Source of the DNA: an uncultured Gammaproteobacteria bacterium
GTDB lineage: Bacteria > Pseudomonadota > Gammaproteobacteria > JAURND01
Length of the DNA stretch: 64,000 bases
Direction of reading: 5' to 3'
NCBI GenBank assembly: GCA_963714975.1
Contig: CAVQQD010000003.1
Location: 384,001-448,000 of the forward strand
Positions 16,145 to 23,241 of the stretch are shown here, in pieces; the stretch's first letter is position 1, and each line of letters begins with the position of its first letter. Below the pieces are notes generated by a model that saw only the letters and a program-made list of their open reading frames with translations, was not told the DNA's origin and searched no databases. A program made the translations under genes and the position numbers.

Positions 16145-16237
16145 TATAAAAACTCCTTTTAGTTGTAGCTTTACTTGGAAGCCTTAGTCTAACATTGTAA
16201 CAAACAGTTTCAAGGCTTGCATATCGTTAGCAGCAAT

Positions 16238-16400
16238 TGTAAGTCACCACTTGTGTTAAAGTAGTTTCTAAGAGAGAAAAGGCTCCCTCGCAAGAAGAAG
16301 CCTGCGGGCGTGAGCGACCGGGCAGCAATAGGTCATACAGCCGTGAGAATCAAGGTACTCTAGCCCTAACTCTCGATACGTTTGAATAGTTAATTTGGGA
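16238..16400 (+). mobile_element. Orphan IS110 left end carrying a truncated bridge-RNA-like sequence
   Basis: 16231-16400 aligns ungapped to 18648-18817 with 6 mismatches in 170 bp; no transposase follows. Confidence 0.88.
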
Positions 16401-16457
16401 GGCAGATTCAGATACGAAATGCAATTTTTAGTTAAATTTATTAAGAGGGGATTTGCA

Positions 16458-17159
16458 ATGGATATGCCTGTTTGTGTAATTGTAGGAGTTGGGTCTGGCA
16501 ATGGCGCTGCTTTTGCTGATCAATTTTCAAAGGCTGGTTATCACCTCGCTTTGCTTGCACGGCACACTAGCTTTACTGATGAACTTGCAACCCAATTGGG
16601 TAACGCATCTTCTTACGAATGTGATGTAACCAGCGTCTCGTCAATTACCCAAACTTTTCAGCGCATCCAAAAGGAGCAAGGTGAAATTGACGTGCTAATT
16701 TACAATGCCGGTTCTGGCACATGGGGCAATATTGAAGATATTACCGCTCAGCAGTTTGAGGATGCTTGGTCCGTCAATGCAAAAGGCTTGCTCATGGTGA
16801 GTCAGCAAGTAATTCCAAGCATGAAAAAACGTGGCCAGGGAAGCATTGTTGTTATTGGCGCTACAGCTTCAAGACGCGGTGGCATAAAAACTGCGGCATT
16901 TGCACCTGCTAAAGCGGCTCAGCGCAGCCTGACCGAATCCATGGCCAGGCATCTATGGCCCTTAGGAATTCACGTGGCTTTGGTTATTATTGATGGCATC
17001 ATCGATTTACCCAAAACTCGTTCCAATCTTCCCGATAAGCCTGATAGTTTTTTCTTAAAGCCGGCTGATATAGCAGCTACCGTGTATTGGTTAACTCAGC
17101 AGCCCTCATCCGCTTGGAGTTTTGAAGTCGAAGCCAGGCCCTTTGGGGAGGCGTGGTAG
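16458..17159 (+). CDS. Short-chain dehydrogenase/reductase
   Basis: VIVGVGSGNG, YNAG and GATASRRG motifs; GAGGGG RBS before ATG 16458. Confidence 0.9.
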   Translation: MDMPVCVIVGVGSGNGAAFADQFSKAGYHLALLARHTSFTDELATQLGNASSYECDVTSVSSITQTFQRIQKEQGEIDVLIYNAGSGTWGNIEDITAQQFEDAWSVNAKGLLMVSQQVIPSMKKRGQGSIVVIGATASRRGGIKTAAFAPAKAAQRSLTESMARHLWPLGIHVALVIIDGIIDLPKTRSNLPDKPDSFFLKPADIAATVYWLTQQPSSAWSFEVEARPFGEAW

Positions 17160-17179
17160 CTGCTGCTAAATTTTGTTAG

Positions 17180-17403
17180 TTATCTAGAAGATACAGGCGG
17201 CCATCGTCTGACTGTATGCACCAATGCTAATATCCAGATGGTTTGTTGGTTAATTTCATATACTAGGCGATAACTTTCGTGTGGAATTAATTAAGTTCTC
17301 GTGCTAGCTGAGAAGTAGGTCGATCGATAGCTTGAGTTTCGGCGATAAACTCAGCGCGTAAATCAGACTCCAGCTTCATGGTAAAAACGGCTTCTTTCGA
17401 CAT
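17180..17403 (-). pseudogene. Collapsed type II TA module (RHH antitoxin 5' part joined to RelE/ParE toxin 3' part)
   Basis: Reads MSKEAVFTMKLESDLRAEF...LAREL, then after a frameshift LIPHESYRLVYEINQQTIWILALVHTVRRWPP*. Confidence 0.75.
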
Positions 17404-17492
17404 AATCATACCCTTTCTCTATTTTTACATACTAAGTATGACGTTTTCATTACTTCATGCCACAAAATTCCGATAAAATTCATTGCCAAACC

Positions 17493-17579
17493 GTAACCAT
17501 TCACCACAATGTTAATGGCAATATTCCTTCTCCCACAAGGGGAGAAGGAGTTTGCCCAATTATCATGCTGAATGTTTAC
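17493..17579. mobile_element. 87-bp MITE with 8-bp direct repeat GCCAAACC
   Basis: Ends GTAACCATTCA and TGAATGTTTAC; GCCAAACC at 17485-17492 and 17580-17587; internal REP-like hairpin. Confidence 0.72.
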
Positions 17580-17727
17580 GCCAAACCTTACTATTGGCTG
17601 TTGAATATAACCTATGCCGCCTTGTGATGCGGGGGTTCACTAACCAAAGCCGATCAAATTTGCTGGCAGCATTAACGGAGCGCATGGTGGCGAGGTTTGA
17701 ACTATTATAACTATCGAGATACATTGT

Positions 17728-18627
17728 ATGAAATATCTATCATTATTCATAACTGCGATTTTTTTTAACAGTATTACTGCGCTTGCCAATATACCAGTAA
17801 TTAAATTTACACGTGTCCAGAAAAATCTGGAAGCTCTTGAGAAGAGTTTTGACGGAAAAATTGGTGTTTATGCTATTAATACCAATAATAATCAAATTAT
17901 TGCTTATCGGGCTGATGAGCGTTTTCCAGTCCAAAGTACCTCTAAATTAATAGTAGTTGCTGCGTTGTTAAAACAAAGTGACCAAAATAAAAAATTATTA
18001 CAAGAGAAAATCTATTATACAAAAAATGCTTTGATTACTTGGCATCCAGTGACAGGAAAATATATTAATAGTGGCATGACATTTGAAGCATTATCAGAAG
18101 CAGCAGTAAGTTATAGTGATAATACAGCTGCGAATCTTATCATAAAAAAATTAGGTGGGCCGACATTCGTAACTAATTTTGCTCGCTCTATTGGAAATAA
18201 AACATTTAATATCCGGCACTATGAAGGAGATTTAAACTCTAATCCGGAGAATGAAGATGATACTGCTACGCCTAAAGATATGGCAATAGGTATACGGGAA
18301 TTAACATTGGGAAATACATTGTCACCACCTCAACGAACTCAATTACTCACATGGATGAGGAATAATACGACCAGTTACAAACGAATGCGTGCAGGTGTTC
18401 CGATTGGCTGGGTTGTTGCTGATAGAACGGGGTCTGGCGATTATGGCGTCGCCAATGATATTGGCATCTTGTGGTCACCTCTATGTAAACCAATTGTATT
18501 AGCTATTTATACGGTACAAAACCAACCAAAGGCAAAGGGTCGAGATGATATCCTGGCGTCAACAACGACTATCGTACTCGATGAATTGGCAAAAAAAGAC
18601 CAATGCTTTAAAGATTTATTTGCATGA
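17728..18627 (+). CDS. Class A serine beta-lactamase (RTG triad)
   Basis: Signal peptide, STSK, SDN, YEGDLN (E166-like) and DRTGSG. Confidence 0.93.
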   Translation: MKYLSLFITAIFFNSITALANIPVIKFTRVQKNLEALEKSFDGKIGVYAINTNNNQIIAYRADERFPVQSTSKLIVVAALLKQSDQNKKLLQEKIYYTKNALITWHPVTGKYINSGMTFEALSEAAVSYSDNTAANLIIKKLGGPTFVTNFARSIGNKTFNIRHYEGDLNSNPENEDDTATPKDMAIGIRELTLGNTLSPPQRTQLLTWMRNNTTSYKRMRAGVPIGWVVADRTGSGDYGVANDIGILWSPLCKPIVLAIYTVQNQPKAKGRDDILASTTTIVLDELAKKDQCFKDLFA

Positions 18628-18684
18628 TATCTGAAAGGAGTAATCATCAGCAATTGTAAGTCACCACTTGTGTTAAAGTAGTTC

Positions 18685-18850
18685 CTAAGAGAGAAAAGGC
18701 TCCCTCGCAAGAAGGAGCCTGCGGGCGTGAGCGACCGGTCAGCAATAGGTTATACAGCCGTGGGAATCAAGGTACTCTAGCCCTAACTCTCGATACGTTT
18801 GAATAGTTCATTTGGGACTAAAGCTCCCGCTTACAATCGTAAATATCGAG
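18685..18850 (+). ncRNA. Putative IS110 bridge RNA
   Basis: 5' hairpin AGGCTCC/GGAGCCT. Loop 1 holds TCAGCAAT (left flank plus core) and GGGAAT (reverse complement of core plus right flank). Loop 2 holds ATAGTTCAT (8/9 to the right end) and CTTACAAT (reverse complement of core plus left end). Transcript ends are approximate. Confidence 0.82.
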
Positions 18851-18856
18851 GTTACC

Positions 18857-19810
18857 ATGAAATTGTATAGTTCTTTTATCGGTATGGATATAGGGAAATT
18901 TAATTTTGTTGTTGCCTTACATGGAGAAAAGATCACGAAAGAGTATCCAAATAGCGCTGAGGGCATTAAGGATTTTTTAAAAGATTATGAAGAAATTTTA
19001 CCCACAGCATTTTGTGTGGTTGAAACGACAGGGGGTCATGAAAAAATTTTGTTACTGGCCCTGCGTTCTAATAGATATGCAGTCCATCGTGCAGATACTA
19101 GGAAAGTAAAAAACTTTATCCATTCCTATGGTAAAAAGGCAAAAACAGATGCATTAGACGCTAAAGGACTAGCCCATTATAGTTATGAAAGGTATCAGGA
19201 ATTAGATATTTATGAACCTCCTGATGAAACGGATATAGCACTTTTTACATTGGTAATGCGTAAAAATGATTTAACAGAGATGCTGGTTGCTGAAAAAAAT
19301 CGCCTTAAATCGCCTAATAATCATGAAATAGTAGAAATAAGTTGTAAAAAAATGATTACCATGCTCTCGGAAGAAATCAAATTGCTCAATGAGAAAATAA
19401 ATGAGCTGATTGAAGGTGTACCTTATTTAAGGGAAAAAAGGAAAGTTTTAAAGAGCATTCCAGGGATTGGTGATGTGCTGAGCTGTGAATTGATTACTTT
19501 ATTGCCTGAACTAGGAACACTGGATAGGAGAAAAATAGCTGCTTTAGCTGGGTTAGCTCCTCAAGCAAATGAGAGTGGCAAATACAAAGGATACAGGCGC
19601 TGTGGTTATGGTCGTCAAGGAGTGAAGCCAAAATTATTTCTCGCTGCCATGGCGGCAAGGAATTCAAATTCGCATCTAAAAGTCTTTTATGAAAAATTGG
19701 TTGGGTCAGGTAAAAAGAAAATGGTGGCTTTAACCGCTTTAATGAGAAAAATTTTAGTCATCGCCAATGCAAAGGTAAGAGATTTCAATAAAGAATATAA
19801 TTTGGCTTGA
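18857..19810 (+). CDS. IS110-family DEDD recombinase/transposase
   Basis: GMDIGK, VETTGG and KTDALD (DEDD), SIPGIG, catalytic-Ser-like NESGK; GAGG RBS before ATG 18857. Confidence 0.95.
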   Translation: MKLYSSFIGMDIGKFNFVVALHGEKITKEYPNSAEGIKDFLKDYEEILPTAFCVVETTGGHEKILLLALRSNRYAVHRADTRKVKNFIHSYGKKAKTDALDAKGLAHYSYERYQELDIYEPPDETDIALFTLVMRKNDLTEMLVAEKNRLKSPNNHEIVEISCKKMITMLSEEIKLLNEKINELIEGVPYLREKRKVLKSIPGIGDVLSCELITLLPELGTLDRRKIAALAGLAPQANESGKYKGYRRCGYGRQGVKPKLFLAAMAARNSNSHLKVFYEKLVGSGKKKMVALTALMRKILVIANAKVRDFNKEYNLA

Positions 19811-20071
19811 AAGAGCACCAAGGAGGGTGCGGTCAAGCCAAATCGACAAGCCCGCTCTATAGCGGGCGAAAAATCTAGACAATTTTTTAAAAAATTAAGA
19901 TATAAATTCTCGTCCAGTGTTTGTTAAAATAAAGCCACGATACAGCCGGGGACGGCAATGACCGTGACGTGATTCCGGGCAGCTTTTGCCACCCAAGCCA
20001 CTGCCCGGTTATTTAAATCACGTCTTAAATATCCCGGGGTGTGGGGCGGAGCCCCACCTTAATCCGCATCT

Positions 20072-20920
20072 TTAATGCACCAATTTTGAATGTACCCTGT
20101 TAGGTGTGAGCCCATTTAAACTTTGATGGGGTCTTTCAAAATTATAAAACTGAAAGTACTCGTCCAATCCTTCCCGCGCAGTCGTAACGTTTTCCCACTC
20201 CTGCAGGTACACACATTCATATTTTACCGATCGCCATAGGCGCTCAACAAAAATATTATCTGCCCATCGTCCCTTTCCATCCATGCTGATTTTGATTTGA
20301 TGCGCGGCGAGCACATCAGTAAAATCTTTGCTTGTAAATTGCGCTCCCTGATCAGTATTAAATATATCGCAGCGTGAATGCGCTAATACCCGCTTAAGTG
20401 TTTCTACACAAAAATCAGCCTCCATAGTGATGCTAAGCTGCCAATCCAATACAAAACGGCTATACCAGTCTATTATGGCCATCAAGTAAACGAAACCTCG
20501 TCGTAGCCTAATATACGTGATATCTGTACTGAAAACTTGGCAAGGCCTGACTATTGCAACGTCATTCAGTAAGTACGGATATACTTTATGTTCAGGATGC
20601 GGCTTACTGGTATGAGGGCCCGGCGCCAATGAGTGCAATCCTAAATGCTCATAAGCCCAACGTGTCTCATGGCGTTTACAAGGGTAATGGTGATAAGAAA
20701 TGTAGTCACTCATTTGCCTTGTACCGAAAGCTGGATGCTTTGTGTAAATTTCATCCACTAAGCGCAGTAATGCTAGCTGTTTATCACTTAATACCTTGGG
20801 ACGTGGCACGTAATATACATTGGAACGGGTTAAATCCAGTAGATCACATTGTCGACAGACTGACAACAATGGGTGTTCTCTCTCAACCCAACCTCGCCTT
20901 TCATCCACGGAACAACTCAA
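20072..20920 (-). CDS. IS3 transposase OrfB (integrase core), probably expressed by -1 frameshift
   Basis: STDITYI, NTDQGAQF and ERLWRSVKYE DDE motifs; A9G slippery run on the minus strand at 20922-20931. Confidence 0.93.
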   Translation of the reverse strand: MSCSVDERRGWVEREHPLLSVCRQCDLLDLTRSNVYYVPRPKVLSDKQLALLRLVDEIYTKHPAFGTRQMSDYISYHHYPCKRHETRWAYEHLGLHSLAPGPHTSKPHPEHKVYPYLLNDVAIVRPCQVFSTDITYIRLRRGFVYLMAIIDWYSRFVLDWQLSITMEADFCVETLKRVLAHSRCDIFNTDQGAQFTSKDFTDVLAAHQIKISMDGKGRWADNIFVERLWRSVKYECVYLQEWENVTTAREGLDEYFQFYNFERPHQSLNGLTPNRVHSKLVH

Positions 20921-21194
20921 ACTTTTTTTTTAAAAAATCATTCTCTACTTTTAAACGACCAATTTGTTCATATAATTCAGCCAGTTGAGTAGCATGTTCC
21001 GTAATTTCATTTTTATTTTTATCACTAAAAACATCGGGCAACAAGGCTAAGGCTTGTTTTTTCCATGCGTTTATTTGCGTTCCATGGGCACCATACTTCG
21101 AGCTAATTTGTGCCAATGTTAGCTCCCCTTTAATAGCTTCCAAAGCAATTTTTGCTTTTTCTGCTGGAGTATATGTTTTACGTTTTTGGCTCAT
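20901..21194 (-). CDS. IS3 transposase OrfA (HTH)
   Basis: KAKIALEAIKG...WKK...LYEQIGRLKVENDFLKKK. Confidence 0.92.
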   Translation of the reverse strand: MSQKRKTYTPAEKAKIALEAIKGELTLAQISSKYGAHGTQINAWKKQALALLPDVFSDKNKNEITEHATQLAELYEQIGRLKVENDFLKKKFELFRG

Positions 21195-21507
21195 TCTCGT
21201 CTCCTGATCCGAAGCGAGAATTATATCTTAGCTTGCCATTTTAACTGTCTGAATTTCTTCGCCCACTATACTCAGCGGGCGCGTCAGTAGGGAGAAACCC
21301 TAGTTTAGGCTGGGGTTTATAGACTTGTATGCTTAAAAATTTTATTTTTTTAAAATTTTTAAGACATAGTTGATTCCCGGTGAATTAAAATCGCCTTAAT
21401 TTTCGTACAGTTAGCGAGACTGTGAAATAAATTTTTCGTACAATGTGGGCATTATTTCTTGAATGGTATTCCATCCCCTCGGTTTTATAAGGAAATGGCA
21501 CAGCCAT

Positions 21508-21619
21508 TTGACCGACGGGTGACGCGCAGGCGGGGACCCCAACGCGCGCAGGAACGAGCACGGTGGGGTGCCGCAGCGGCAGGACCCGTCGTGGATCAGG
21601 GCATCAGCGGGAATTGCTG
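21508..21619. repeat. Structured GC-rich repeat, copy A
   Basis: CGACGGGTGACGC...CGCGCAG..CGAGCACG...GCGGCAGGACCCGTCG core shared with 56227 and 57865; ends AGCGGGAATTGCTG. Confidence 0.8.
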
Positions 21620-21801
21620 GAGTAATCATCCTTTTTCTGGATTATTGTCTTCTTTACGTATATAATGCTGGTTTTTAATTATTTCAACATGAGGTTTTGC
21701 ATATCATGAACATGACTACTTAAAGTTGCCCGTCAAGGGCCAAAGAGCGCGCTATTTACGCTCTGTTTTGAGAATCGCCCTTCACTTTAAGAGAGTCACT
21801 T

Positions 21802-23241
21802 ATGCATAAGCCCATTCAAATTGAACAGCTAAGTTTATCCTTCCCTAACAAGACCTGCTTTGAAGCATTTAACGCTGAAATTCATCATGGCAGCCGCATT
21901 GCCATTATTGGTCGCAATGGCTGTGGAAAAACGAGTTTACTGAATATATTGCGTGGCTTAGCAGAACCGACTATGGGTCGTATTATCATGCCTGCCGACG
22001 CAATAATTGGTTTTGTGCCACAGGTAATTAACGACTTTGTTGATCACAGTGGTGGTGAGCGGCTCAATTGTGCTTTGACCCAAGCCTTAAGTCTTCAGCC
22101 CAATATTTTATTGCTGGATGAACCCACTAATCACCTCGATGAGCGGAATCGCCGCCATGTGTTGCGTTGGCTGGAGCATTTTTCCGGCACATTGCTGGTC
22201 GTTTCACATGATGTGGTTCTGCTGCGTCAGTTGGTGAATACGTTTTGGCATATCGATCAAAGCCGTATTCAGATTTTTACTGGTGGTTTTGATGATTATC
22301 AACAAGCCCGAAACATTCAGCGGGTGCAATTGGAAATATCGTTACAGAATCTAAAACGCGAACGAAATGACCTGCATCAATCACTCATGCAAGAACAACA
22401 GCGTGCAGCCAAAAGCAAGACCAAGGGTGCAAAAAATATTGATCAAAGAAAATGGCCAACGGTAGTGAGTCATGCGAAGGCCAGTCGATCTCAAGAAACT
22501 AGTGGGCGGAAAAAAGCTGCGCTTGCTAGTAAAAACCAAGCGGTATTGGCAGAATTGGCTGAGTTGCATATCCCTGAAGTCATTGTTCCTAAATTTCATT
22601 TGTCTTACCAAAAAAATAATCATACGGTATTATCCATTAGTCAGGGGTCAGTAGGCTATGCTGAAAATAAATGGATATTGCAAAATATTCATTTATCGAT
22701 AATGGCTGGAAACCGTGTTGCACTGCTTGGTGATAACGGTTCAGGGAAATCCAGCTTATTTAAGGCTATTTTAGCAGCTGAAGATGTGATTCGTTCTGGG
22801 GAATGGTTCTTGCCTAGGCAACATGCCATGGGCTATTTAGATCAGCATTATCAAACGCTTTGTCCTACAGACACGGTATTAACATCCATCAGTCGCTTGA
22901 TGCCAAACTGTTCTCACGTGGAAATTCGTTATCATTTAAGTGATTTTTTATTTCGCAGTCAAGAGACAGTTAATACGCCGATTGCACAACTGTCCGGCGG
23001 TGAAAAAGCGCGTTTATCGTTGGCGCATATTGCCGCACAAACACCGGAGCTGTTATTGCTGGATGAAGTGACTAATAATTTGGATCTAGAAACTCGTCAA
23101 CATGTAATTGAAGTATTGAAAGATTATCCAGGCAGTTTGTTGGTGATTTCACATGATCAAGAGTTTTTGCGTGCGATTGCAATCCAAGATTATTATGAGA
23201 TCACTGAGGGTAGTCTGCATTTGCAATTACCATTGAGCTAA
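21802..23241 (+). CDS. ABC-F family ATPase (possible ribosome protection protein)
   Basis: Two ABC domains (GRNGCGKT, LDEPTNHLD; GDNGSGKS, LSGGE, LDEVTNNLD), long linker, no TM segments. Confidence 0.9.
   Translation: MHKPIQIEQLSLSFPNKTCFEAFNAEIHHGSRIAIIGRNGCGKTSLLNILRGLAEPTMGRIIMPADAIIGFVPQVINDFVDHSGGERLNCALTQALSLQPNILLLDEPTNHLDERNRRHVLRWLEHFSGTLLVVSHDVVLLRQLVNTFWHIDQSRIQIFTGGFDDYQQARNIQRVQLEISLQNLKRERNDLHQSLMQEQQRAAKSKTKGAKNIDQRKWPTVVSHAKASRSQETSGRKKAALASKNQAVLAELAELHIPEVIVPKFHLSYQKNNHTVLSISQGSVGYAENKWILQNIHLSIMAGNRVALLGDNGSGKSSLFKAILAAEDVIRSGEWFLPRQHAMGYLDQHYQTLCPTDTVLTSISRLMPNCSHVEIRYHLSDFLFRSQETVNTPIAQLSGGEKARLSLAHIAAQTPELLLLDEVTNNLDLETRQHVIEVLKDYPGSLLVISHDQEFLRAIAIQDYYEITEGSLHLQLPLS

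Follow-up and report, generated by a model that had tools for sequence, protein, structure and literature searches.

Within a 64,000-nt stretch of the genome of an uncultured Gammaproteobacteria bacterium (GTDB JAURND01; assembly GCA_963714975.1, contig CAVQQD010000003.1, positions 384,001 to 448,000 of the forward strand), here referred to as the window and used for the numbering of all positions below, we identified an insertion sequence (IS) of the IS110 group that is 1,304 bp long in its intact form. We consider it highly probable that this element encodes, next to a recombinase with DEDD and serine catalytic residues, a bridge RNA of about 165 nt whose two internal loops read the insertion site and the element's own joined ends, with exchange at an AT dinucleotide. 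In the proposed mechanism, the RNA would be transcribed from the region upstream of the recombinase gene and would fold into a 5' hairpin followed by the two internal loops. Loop 1 would read the site (T)CAGCA-AT-TCCC at the edge of a family of scattered repeats, and loop 2 would read the joined ends ATAGTTG-AT-TGTAAG. Excision as a circle is expected by analogy with IS621 and would complete a promoter across the junction, and the complex of recombinase and RNA would pair the target with the donor, with strand exchange at the AT dinucleotide.

The boundaries of the element were determined by comparing its copies. The host genome (G000; 2.56 Mb in 3 contigs, 43% G+C) contains three further copies, all of them intact and none with the IS3-family element that is nested in the window copy at 19858-21271. 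Outside the nested element, two of the three are identical to the window copy and the third differs from it by one base, at 18792; in all three, the sequence of 18648-19857 runs straight into that of 21275-21379. The left junctions of the four copies and of two left-end remnants read xCAGCA-AT-TGTAAG, where x is T, T, A, C, G, and G, and the right junctions of all four copies read ...CATAGTTG-AT-TCCCG, which is where the similarity among the copies ends. In the window, the left junction consists of the left target half (LT; 18647-18652), of which CAGCA at 18648-18652 is common to the six left junctions, the left copy of the AT (18653-18654), and the element start with the right donor half TGTAAG (RD; 18655-18660), a start that is shared with related elements. 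The right junction consists of the element end with the left donor half ATAGTTG (LD; 21366-21372), the right copy of the AT (21373-21374), and the right target half TCCCG (RT; 21375-21379), which is common to all four right junctions.

The same genome has 36 occurrences of the uninterrupted site, CAGCAATTCCC, where 0.95 to 1.2 would be expected. At 25 of these 36 sites, GCT follows and leads into one of a family of interspersed repeats rich in G+C; the copies at loci L002 and L004 are flanked on their right by the same repeat sequence. From the empty sites, the flanks that continue into the repeat, and the shared ends, it follows that the element is 1,304 bp long, that it inserts at one sequence, and that the conserved flanks are target and not terminus. 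The element accounts for a set of repeat-associated insertions in its own genome. A preliminary description of this DNA had arrived at the same boundaries, which the three intact copies and the 36 empty sites support; it had named different boundaries in other copies as a reason to abandon its reading, and all copies share the same ones. The interior of its span of 18647-21380 holds a separate IS3-family element, which it had not noted. As for its target, TCAGCA-AT-TCCC, both CAGCA and TCCC are common to the copies, but the leading T is not, since the base before CAGCA varies over the six left junctions.

The non-coding left end of the element (202 nt) contains four segments that match the junctions, as the preliminary description had proposed, and all four were recovered. 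The target-binding loop with its closing stems (18723-18783) contains a left target guide (LTG) at 18739-18746, where TCAGCAAT is a direct repeat of 18647-18654, and, beyond an inner stem-loop (18748-18759), a right target guide (RTG) at 18762-18767, where GGGAAT is the reverse complement of ATTCCC at 21373-21378. The donor-binding loop with its closing stems (18788-18851) contains a left donor guide (LDG) at 18803-18811, where ATAGTTCAT is identical to ATAGTTGAT at 21366-21374 in 8 of 9 positions, and, beyond a second inner stem-loop (18814-18828), a right donor guide (RDG) at 18830-18837, where CTTACAAT is the reverse complement of ATTGTAAG at 18653-18660 in 8 of 8 positions. Loop 2 thus matches the termini of the element itself. 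When the left end was shuffled 200,000 times, the four matches never recurred together in order; the first two were reached 9 times, and the first alone 678 times. The RTG is followed by CA (18768-18769), which complements the TG at donor positions 6-7 in the manner of a handshake guide.

For comparison with known systems, here and below, we used parts of PMC11208160 (Durrant et al.), PMC11208158 (Hiraizumi et al.), PMC11187229, 10.1101/2025.05.14.653916, 10.64898/2026.03.19.712850, and 10.64898/2026.08.14.744561. In the layout described for IS621 (PMC11208160), the LTG has the sense of the top strand and the RTG that of its complement, and the donor loop follows the same plan; after the exchange, the handshake guides beside the RTG and the RDG pair with the other DNA at its positions 6-7 (PMC11208158). 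The target-loop and donor-loop design of the IS621 type that had been suggested for the window element agrees with this layout.

To follow the guides beyond one genome, a profile built from 32 homologues of the recombinase was used to collect 79 loci from named public genomes. The hosts were mostly Legionella and Legionellales bins, along with other Gammaproteobacteria, Rickettsiales, Wolbachia, Holosporaceae, and Paracaedibacter. The identities to these relatives were 42% to 81% over the best matched segment, and 46% to 59% where the match was near full length. Guides and flanks were compared in the relatives for which both junctions could be located, comprising 18 distinct loop-1 sequences and 13 target classes, and the poorly fitting loci L022, L024, L036, and L049 were retained in all counts of guides and targets.

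The upstream regions of the relatives share a common scaffold, but the two sides of loop 1 diverge. On its 5' side the loop copies the left flank of the respective element, and on its 3' side it complements the right flank, so that the loop matches both halves of the site and changes with it, as in other IS110-group bridge systems. Outside the core, 177 of 234 guide positions match the flanks, a value that was not equalled in any of 20,000 permutations of the targets. True pairs of element and target average 5.6 matches of 7 and 4.3 of 6 on the two sides, against 3.1 and 2.9 for mismatched pairs. The first base of the pair that follows the RTG is C in 27 of 33 relatives.

Covariation in loop 2 is thin, the donor being nearly invariant across the relatives. 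The LDG reads AUAGUUG in 30 of 33 relatives, and the right ends that could be located end in ATAGTTG. The sole double change of LDG and LD was found in the L016 group, in which the RNA reads AUGGUUG and the right end ...CATGGTTG|AT.

A structured RNA with two loops is predicted from this comparison upstream of the gene, in the left end, as is typical of IS110-group systems. The structure that we named comprises three stems closing loop 1 with its inner stem-loop and a basal stem closing loop 2 with its inner stem-loop, and is preceded by the 5' hairpin (18697-18720). The pairs were named by hand and then counted in an alignment of 33 sequences, with misaligned rows scored as unpaired. For the 27 named pairs, 94.6% of the cells are paired, and 16 pairs have changed on both sides; none of 500 shuffles was as good, and sliding the partners by 1 to 3 columns lowers the pairing to 28% to 45%. 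Independently, RNAalifold gave 22 pairs, 12 of which show compensatory changes. On the MAFFT alignment, misaligned linkers of variable length kept it from detecting the 5' hairpin and the loop-2 basal stem. The 5' hairpin is unrelated in sequence but stable in 30 of 32 distinct relatives (z below -2). For the window RNA, the model has a free energy of -41.8 kcal/mol and emerges as the best fold once the guides are held single-stranded. The 5' hairpin and two internal loops of the preliminary description are thus borne out by covariation in the relatives and not by the fold of the single sequence.

The recombinase gene (18857-19810, plus strand) is intact and encodes 317 amino acids with the Pfam domains PF01548 (DEDD_Tnp_IS110) and PF02371 (Transposase_20). 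The protein scored 160.7 bits against the NCBIfam model NF033542, named "IS110 family RNA-guided transposase", for which the cut-off is 140. Matches among solved structures in the PDB included ISCro4 (9t56, E 9.4e-32) and IS621 (8wt6, E 4.6e-29), covering residues 6/7-304. Residues D11, E56, D98, D101, S240, and G241 are invariant in the 32 homologues and align with D11, E60, D102, D105, S241, and G242 of IS621, in which D11, E60, D102, D105, and S241 are described as the active site (Hiraizumi et al., PMC11208158). The protein accordingly combines a DEDD RuvC-like N-terminal domain with a Tnp C-terminal domain carrying the catalytic serine, the arrangement that defines the IS110-group recombinases.

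Several comparisons support AT as the core dinucleotide. In the window, the LTG and the RTG overlap exactly at AT, and in its own genome the element is flanked by AT at both junctions in every copy. In the relatives, the right junction has the form CATAGTTG|AT in all 18 cases, and AT is also found at the end of the left flank in 16 of 18. The target base that follows the AT in the relatives is C, G, A, or T, whereas the element always starts with T. AU is present at the core position of the LTG in 28 of 33 relatives and of the RTG in 31 of 33, and the core is also read by the RDG. As in other IS110-group systems, a short core is thus found at both junctions and is read by guides. The AT core of the preliminary description therefore stands on the overlap of the guides and on the relatives, but a different core is not as novel as it had suggested, since AT, GT, and TT cores have already been tried on IS621 by reprogramming (Durrant et al., PMC11208160). 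In that work, cores other than CT, including AT, were reported to be less efficient unless the RTG was lengthened.

That the core might instead be TT or ATT is suggested by the host genome itself, in which three bases are ambiguous between the junctions ..AAT|TGTAAG on the left and ..GAT|TCCC on the right, and in which ATT stays unassigned when the empty site CAGCAATTCCC is compared with both junctions. We regard this as very unlikely, since the match of the LTG ends after AT and that of the RTG begins at AT, the AU of both guides is kept in most relatives, and the base after AT varies at their right junctions while the element start is fixed as T. AT alone is therefore common to both junctions, which resolves the ambiguity left by the host genome. 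A more radical alternative would take CAGCA and TCCCG, which are indeed common to every copy in the host genome, as the termini of the element, and the matches in the left end as internal repeats bound by a protein, with no RNA guide at all. This we find barely credible in view of the uninterrupted sites, most of which continue into the repeat, and of the same repeat to the right of L002 and L004. Moreover, the flanks of the relatives are entirely different and are mirrored in the loop 1 of each element, and the stems around the loops covary as RNA pairs do.

The reading of the left end as a bridge RNA also has to be weighed against several observations that do not favour it. The unconstrained minimum free energy fold of 18655-18860 did not stand out from shuffled sequences, 32 of 200 of which were as stable (z -0.92), and since the single sequence cannot be told apart from shuffles, the fold relies on the comparison with relatives. 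A search of 18000-22000 against Rfam, with E-values up to 1, placed no family on the left end. A scan of the integrated left end for promoters found no full sigma-70 site, which fits the idea of a promoter formed at the junction, and the 16-mer expected at the joined ends occurs 0 times in the assembly. Some of the loci fit the guide rules poorly: the LTG of L022 has two mismatches, the LTGs of L036 and L049 do not end in AU, and L024 scored only 3+3, probably because its left end was misplaced. In loop 2, only 2 of 33 relatives carry AU directly behind the 7-nt LDG, and the AT of ATAGTTCAT therefore probably does not represent a conserved contact. The RDG is followed by C in 32 of 33 relatives, a base that fits G7 of the element's own donor and does not track the target; by the rule described for IS621 (PMC11208158) such a base, when it does not fit the target, would hinder exchange. 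Finally, position 7 of the LDG is C against G in the donor, a C that is unique to the window element, the relatives carrying the matching G. For the left guide of loop 2, the match in 8 of 9 positions reported in the preliminary description was thus confirmed, but its terminal AT is not conserved and its position 7 is peculiar to this element.

The mismatch at LDG position 7 also bears on whether the window copy can still move. It is possible, though we doubt it, that this copy is no longer mobile and that only the family works as a bridge system, because of either this mismatch or the IS3-family element, which splits the hairpin 3' of the gene and shifts the right terminus 1.4 kb away. The recombinase gene, the RNA region, and both termini of the window copy are unchanged despite the nested element, and enlarged IS110 elements have been reported to be mobile (10.64898/2026.08.14.744561). 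The same LDG is present in four copies that are 0 to 1 single-nucleotide polymorphism apart and are located at different cognate sites, which implies recent movement with this RNA and argues that C at position 7 is tolerated. In IS621, LD position 7 was likewise reported to be more tolerant of mismatches (Durrant et al., PMC11208160).

The sequence upstream of the RNA contains an extended -10-like box, TG-T-TAAAGT (18671-18679), and the relatives contain a similar TGnTATAAn-like box at the same offset from the left terminus. A -35-like TTGATT would arise only where the right and left ends are joined, 17 to 18 nt before the extended -10, and we infer a junction promoter there; such promoters have been described for IS621 (PMC11208160) and ISPpu10. 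Among contigs and reads from four public runs, we found three short contigs that cover the coding region only and no joints of right to left ends; two raw-read runs contained no matching reads. The public sequencing runs that we surveyed included no RNA run containing the element. The ribosome-binding site of the recombinase gene, a GAGG located 5 nt before the start codon, falls within the basal stem of loop 2, on its 3' arm (18844-18851), and the relatives have kept the sequence TCGAGG. With the GAGG inside the stem, folding of the RNA may limit, and thereby be coupled to, translation of the recombinase.

Among the known systems, the element resembles IS621 from Escherichia coli in its protein family and catalytic residues, although the two proteins are only distantly related, and in an RNA that is located in the left end and consists of a 5' hairpin and target and donor loops. 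The strand rule for the LTG, RTG, LDG, and RDG, the core of 2 nt read by guides, the handshake-like pair after the RTG, and the repeated extragenic target are also the same. It differs from IS621 in its AT core, as opposed to CT, in an RTG that spans 6 nt with the core counted in and may be extended by G-U, in an LDG that in most members of the clade does not read the core, and in the base after the RDG, which fits the element's own donor. IS622/ISCro4 from Citrobacter rodentium, the best match among solved structures, follows the same logic of 14-nt target and donor with handshake guides, but recombination is described there at CT cores, with CT or GT sites chosen for use. ISPpu10 from Pseudomonas putida is also of the IS110 group and inserts in repeated extragenic palindromes, and its circle forms a junction promoter, but in its description the core is CT and a 5' stem-loop is absent. 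The ISEc21 and IS1111-group seekRNA elements likewise rely on RNA guidance by a non-coding region of their own to choose their targets and, as described in PMC11187229, make no true target duplication. The IS1111 group is distinguished in PMC11208160 by a guide RNA downstream of the gene, a right end that is longer than the left, and subterminal inverted repeats of 7 to 17 bp. Membership of the window element in that group was rejected, as its RNA lies upstream, its left end of 202 nt is longer than its right end of about 145 nt in the intact copies, and its donor is bracketed by nothing more than a GAC...GTC pair.

The kind of system described here is already known, given that the NCBIfam model itself is named for an RNA-guided transposase and that AT cores have been tried on IS621; bridge RNAs have been predicted in 85.7% of the catalogued IS110-group elements (Durrant et al., PMC11208160). 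The departures from IS621 at the level of the clade may nevertheless deserve a test. We tentatively suggest, as an idea that may well prove wrong, that the relatives form a natural AT-core clade in Legionellales-like hosts, Rickettsiales, Wolbachia, Holosporaceae, and other hosts of intracellular type, with a nearly fixed donor CATAGTTG-AT-TGTAAG, an LDG that does not read the core, and a base after the RDG that fits the element's own donor. If so, the clade would use a variant of the strand-exchange and handshake logic of IS621 on a self-complementary AT core, and would provide ready-made enzymes for AT cores that naturally cover at least 13 target specificities. Such a clade would be a sensible place to seek enzymes for widening the range of addressable sites, and would also show which parts of the bridge-RNA design are dispensable. 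Our literature search found no description of a natural AT-core IS110 clade with a bridge RNA, although the supplementary tables of PMC11208160 may list orthologues with cores other than CT, perhaps including this clade. One analysis in that paper kept only guides with CT cores, which implies that other guides were present in its data. Bridge RNAs are unmentioned in the literature found on Legionella, Wolbachia, Rickettsiales, and Coxiella; 10.1101/2025.10.25.684509 does not mention a core, and 10.1101/2024.06.21.599552 uses the word only in an irrelevant sense.

We noted several further features of the repeats associated with the element. The IS110 target corresponds to the first 11 to 14 bases of one class of G+C-rich interspersed repeats. 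Such repeats, about 110 bp long and present in more than 10 copies in the host genome, are located at 21500-21620 in the window and in the right flanks of L002 to L004. A short palindromic repeat (TTCCTTCTCCCACAAGGGGAGAAGGAG...) at 17521-17556 in the window has many near-identical copies in several genomes of the same family (G003, G004, G006, and G008), and is also located just left of many IS110 target sites in the host genome. A 24-bp leftover of the IS110 left terminus (L008; C2:41382-41405 of G000) is again preceded by GCAGCAAT. Among the relatives, one target, (C)GAAGCA-AT-CCAG, lies in a longer conserved flank (..GCGACGAAGCAAT..) that is common to L012 to L015, L024, L026, L027, L033, L061, and L081. 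These loci are in different bins and species, which suggests targeting of a repeat that is common to several lineages of intracellular type. Separately, an Rfam microRNA match at 18089-18147 in the window was dismissed as a chance match.

The nested element (19858-21271, minus strand) is a complete member of the IS3 family, 1,414 bp long, and does not belong to the IS110 element itself. It contains orfA (20901-21194) and orfB (20072-20920), with HTH_Tnp_1 and rve domains, and has imperfect terminal inverted repeats (TATAGCGGGCGAA and TTCGCCCACTATA). It was inserted into a GC-rich hairpin that lies 3' of the IS110 stop codon and the first half of which is located at 19850-19857 and the second half at 21275-21281, with a target duplication of 3 bp, CTC, at 19855-19857 and 21272-21274. 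The remainder of the right non-coding end of the IS110 element (21272-21365) continues from there through an A+T-rich stretch. Two other copies of the IS3-family element are present in the host genome (C2:414109-415522 and C1:259849-261263), and diverged kin were found in related genomes.

The gene immediately to the left of the IS110 element (17728-18627) encodes a class A beta-lactamase and ends 20 bp before the target half-site. The nearest homologues of the beta-lactamase are at most 76% identical and come from metagenomes and from bins labelled Gammaproteobacteria or Tatlockia. A DNA search of 20 related genomes did not find the IS110 element, and the gene order around the locus was not conserved among them, which is neutral with regard to a recent acquisition. 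Further to the left, at 16231-16400, we found a relic of a related IS110 element that comprises 170 bp of its left end, is 96% identical, and is located in a GCAGCA-AT site, so that the locus is marked by a beta-lactamase gene between two left ends of the IS. The relic, a gene for a short-chain dehydrogenase (SDR oxidoreductase; 16458-17159), the beta-lactamase gene, and the full IS110 element together make up a stretch of 5.1 kb (16231-21374) between left-type and right-type junctions. By its arrangement alone, this stretch resembles the enlarged IS110 loci described in 10.64898/2026.08.14.744561; with the arrangement as the only indication and no sign of movement, we rejected the beta-lactamase gene as proven cargo of an enlarged IS110 element. 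The guides of the relic are altered: its LTG starts with G, which matches its own flank, its RTG reads GAGAAT, and its LDG reads ATAGTTAAT. A site that fits the RTG of the relic, CAGCAATTCTC, occurs 10 times in the host genome.

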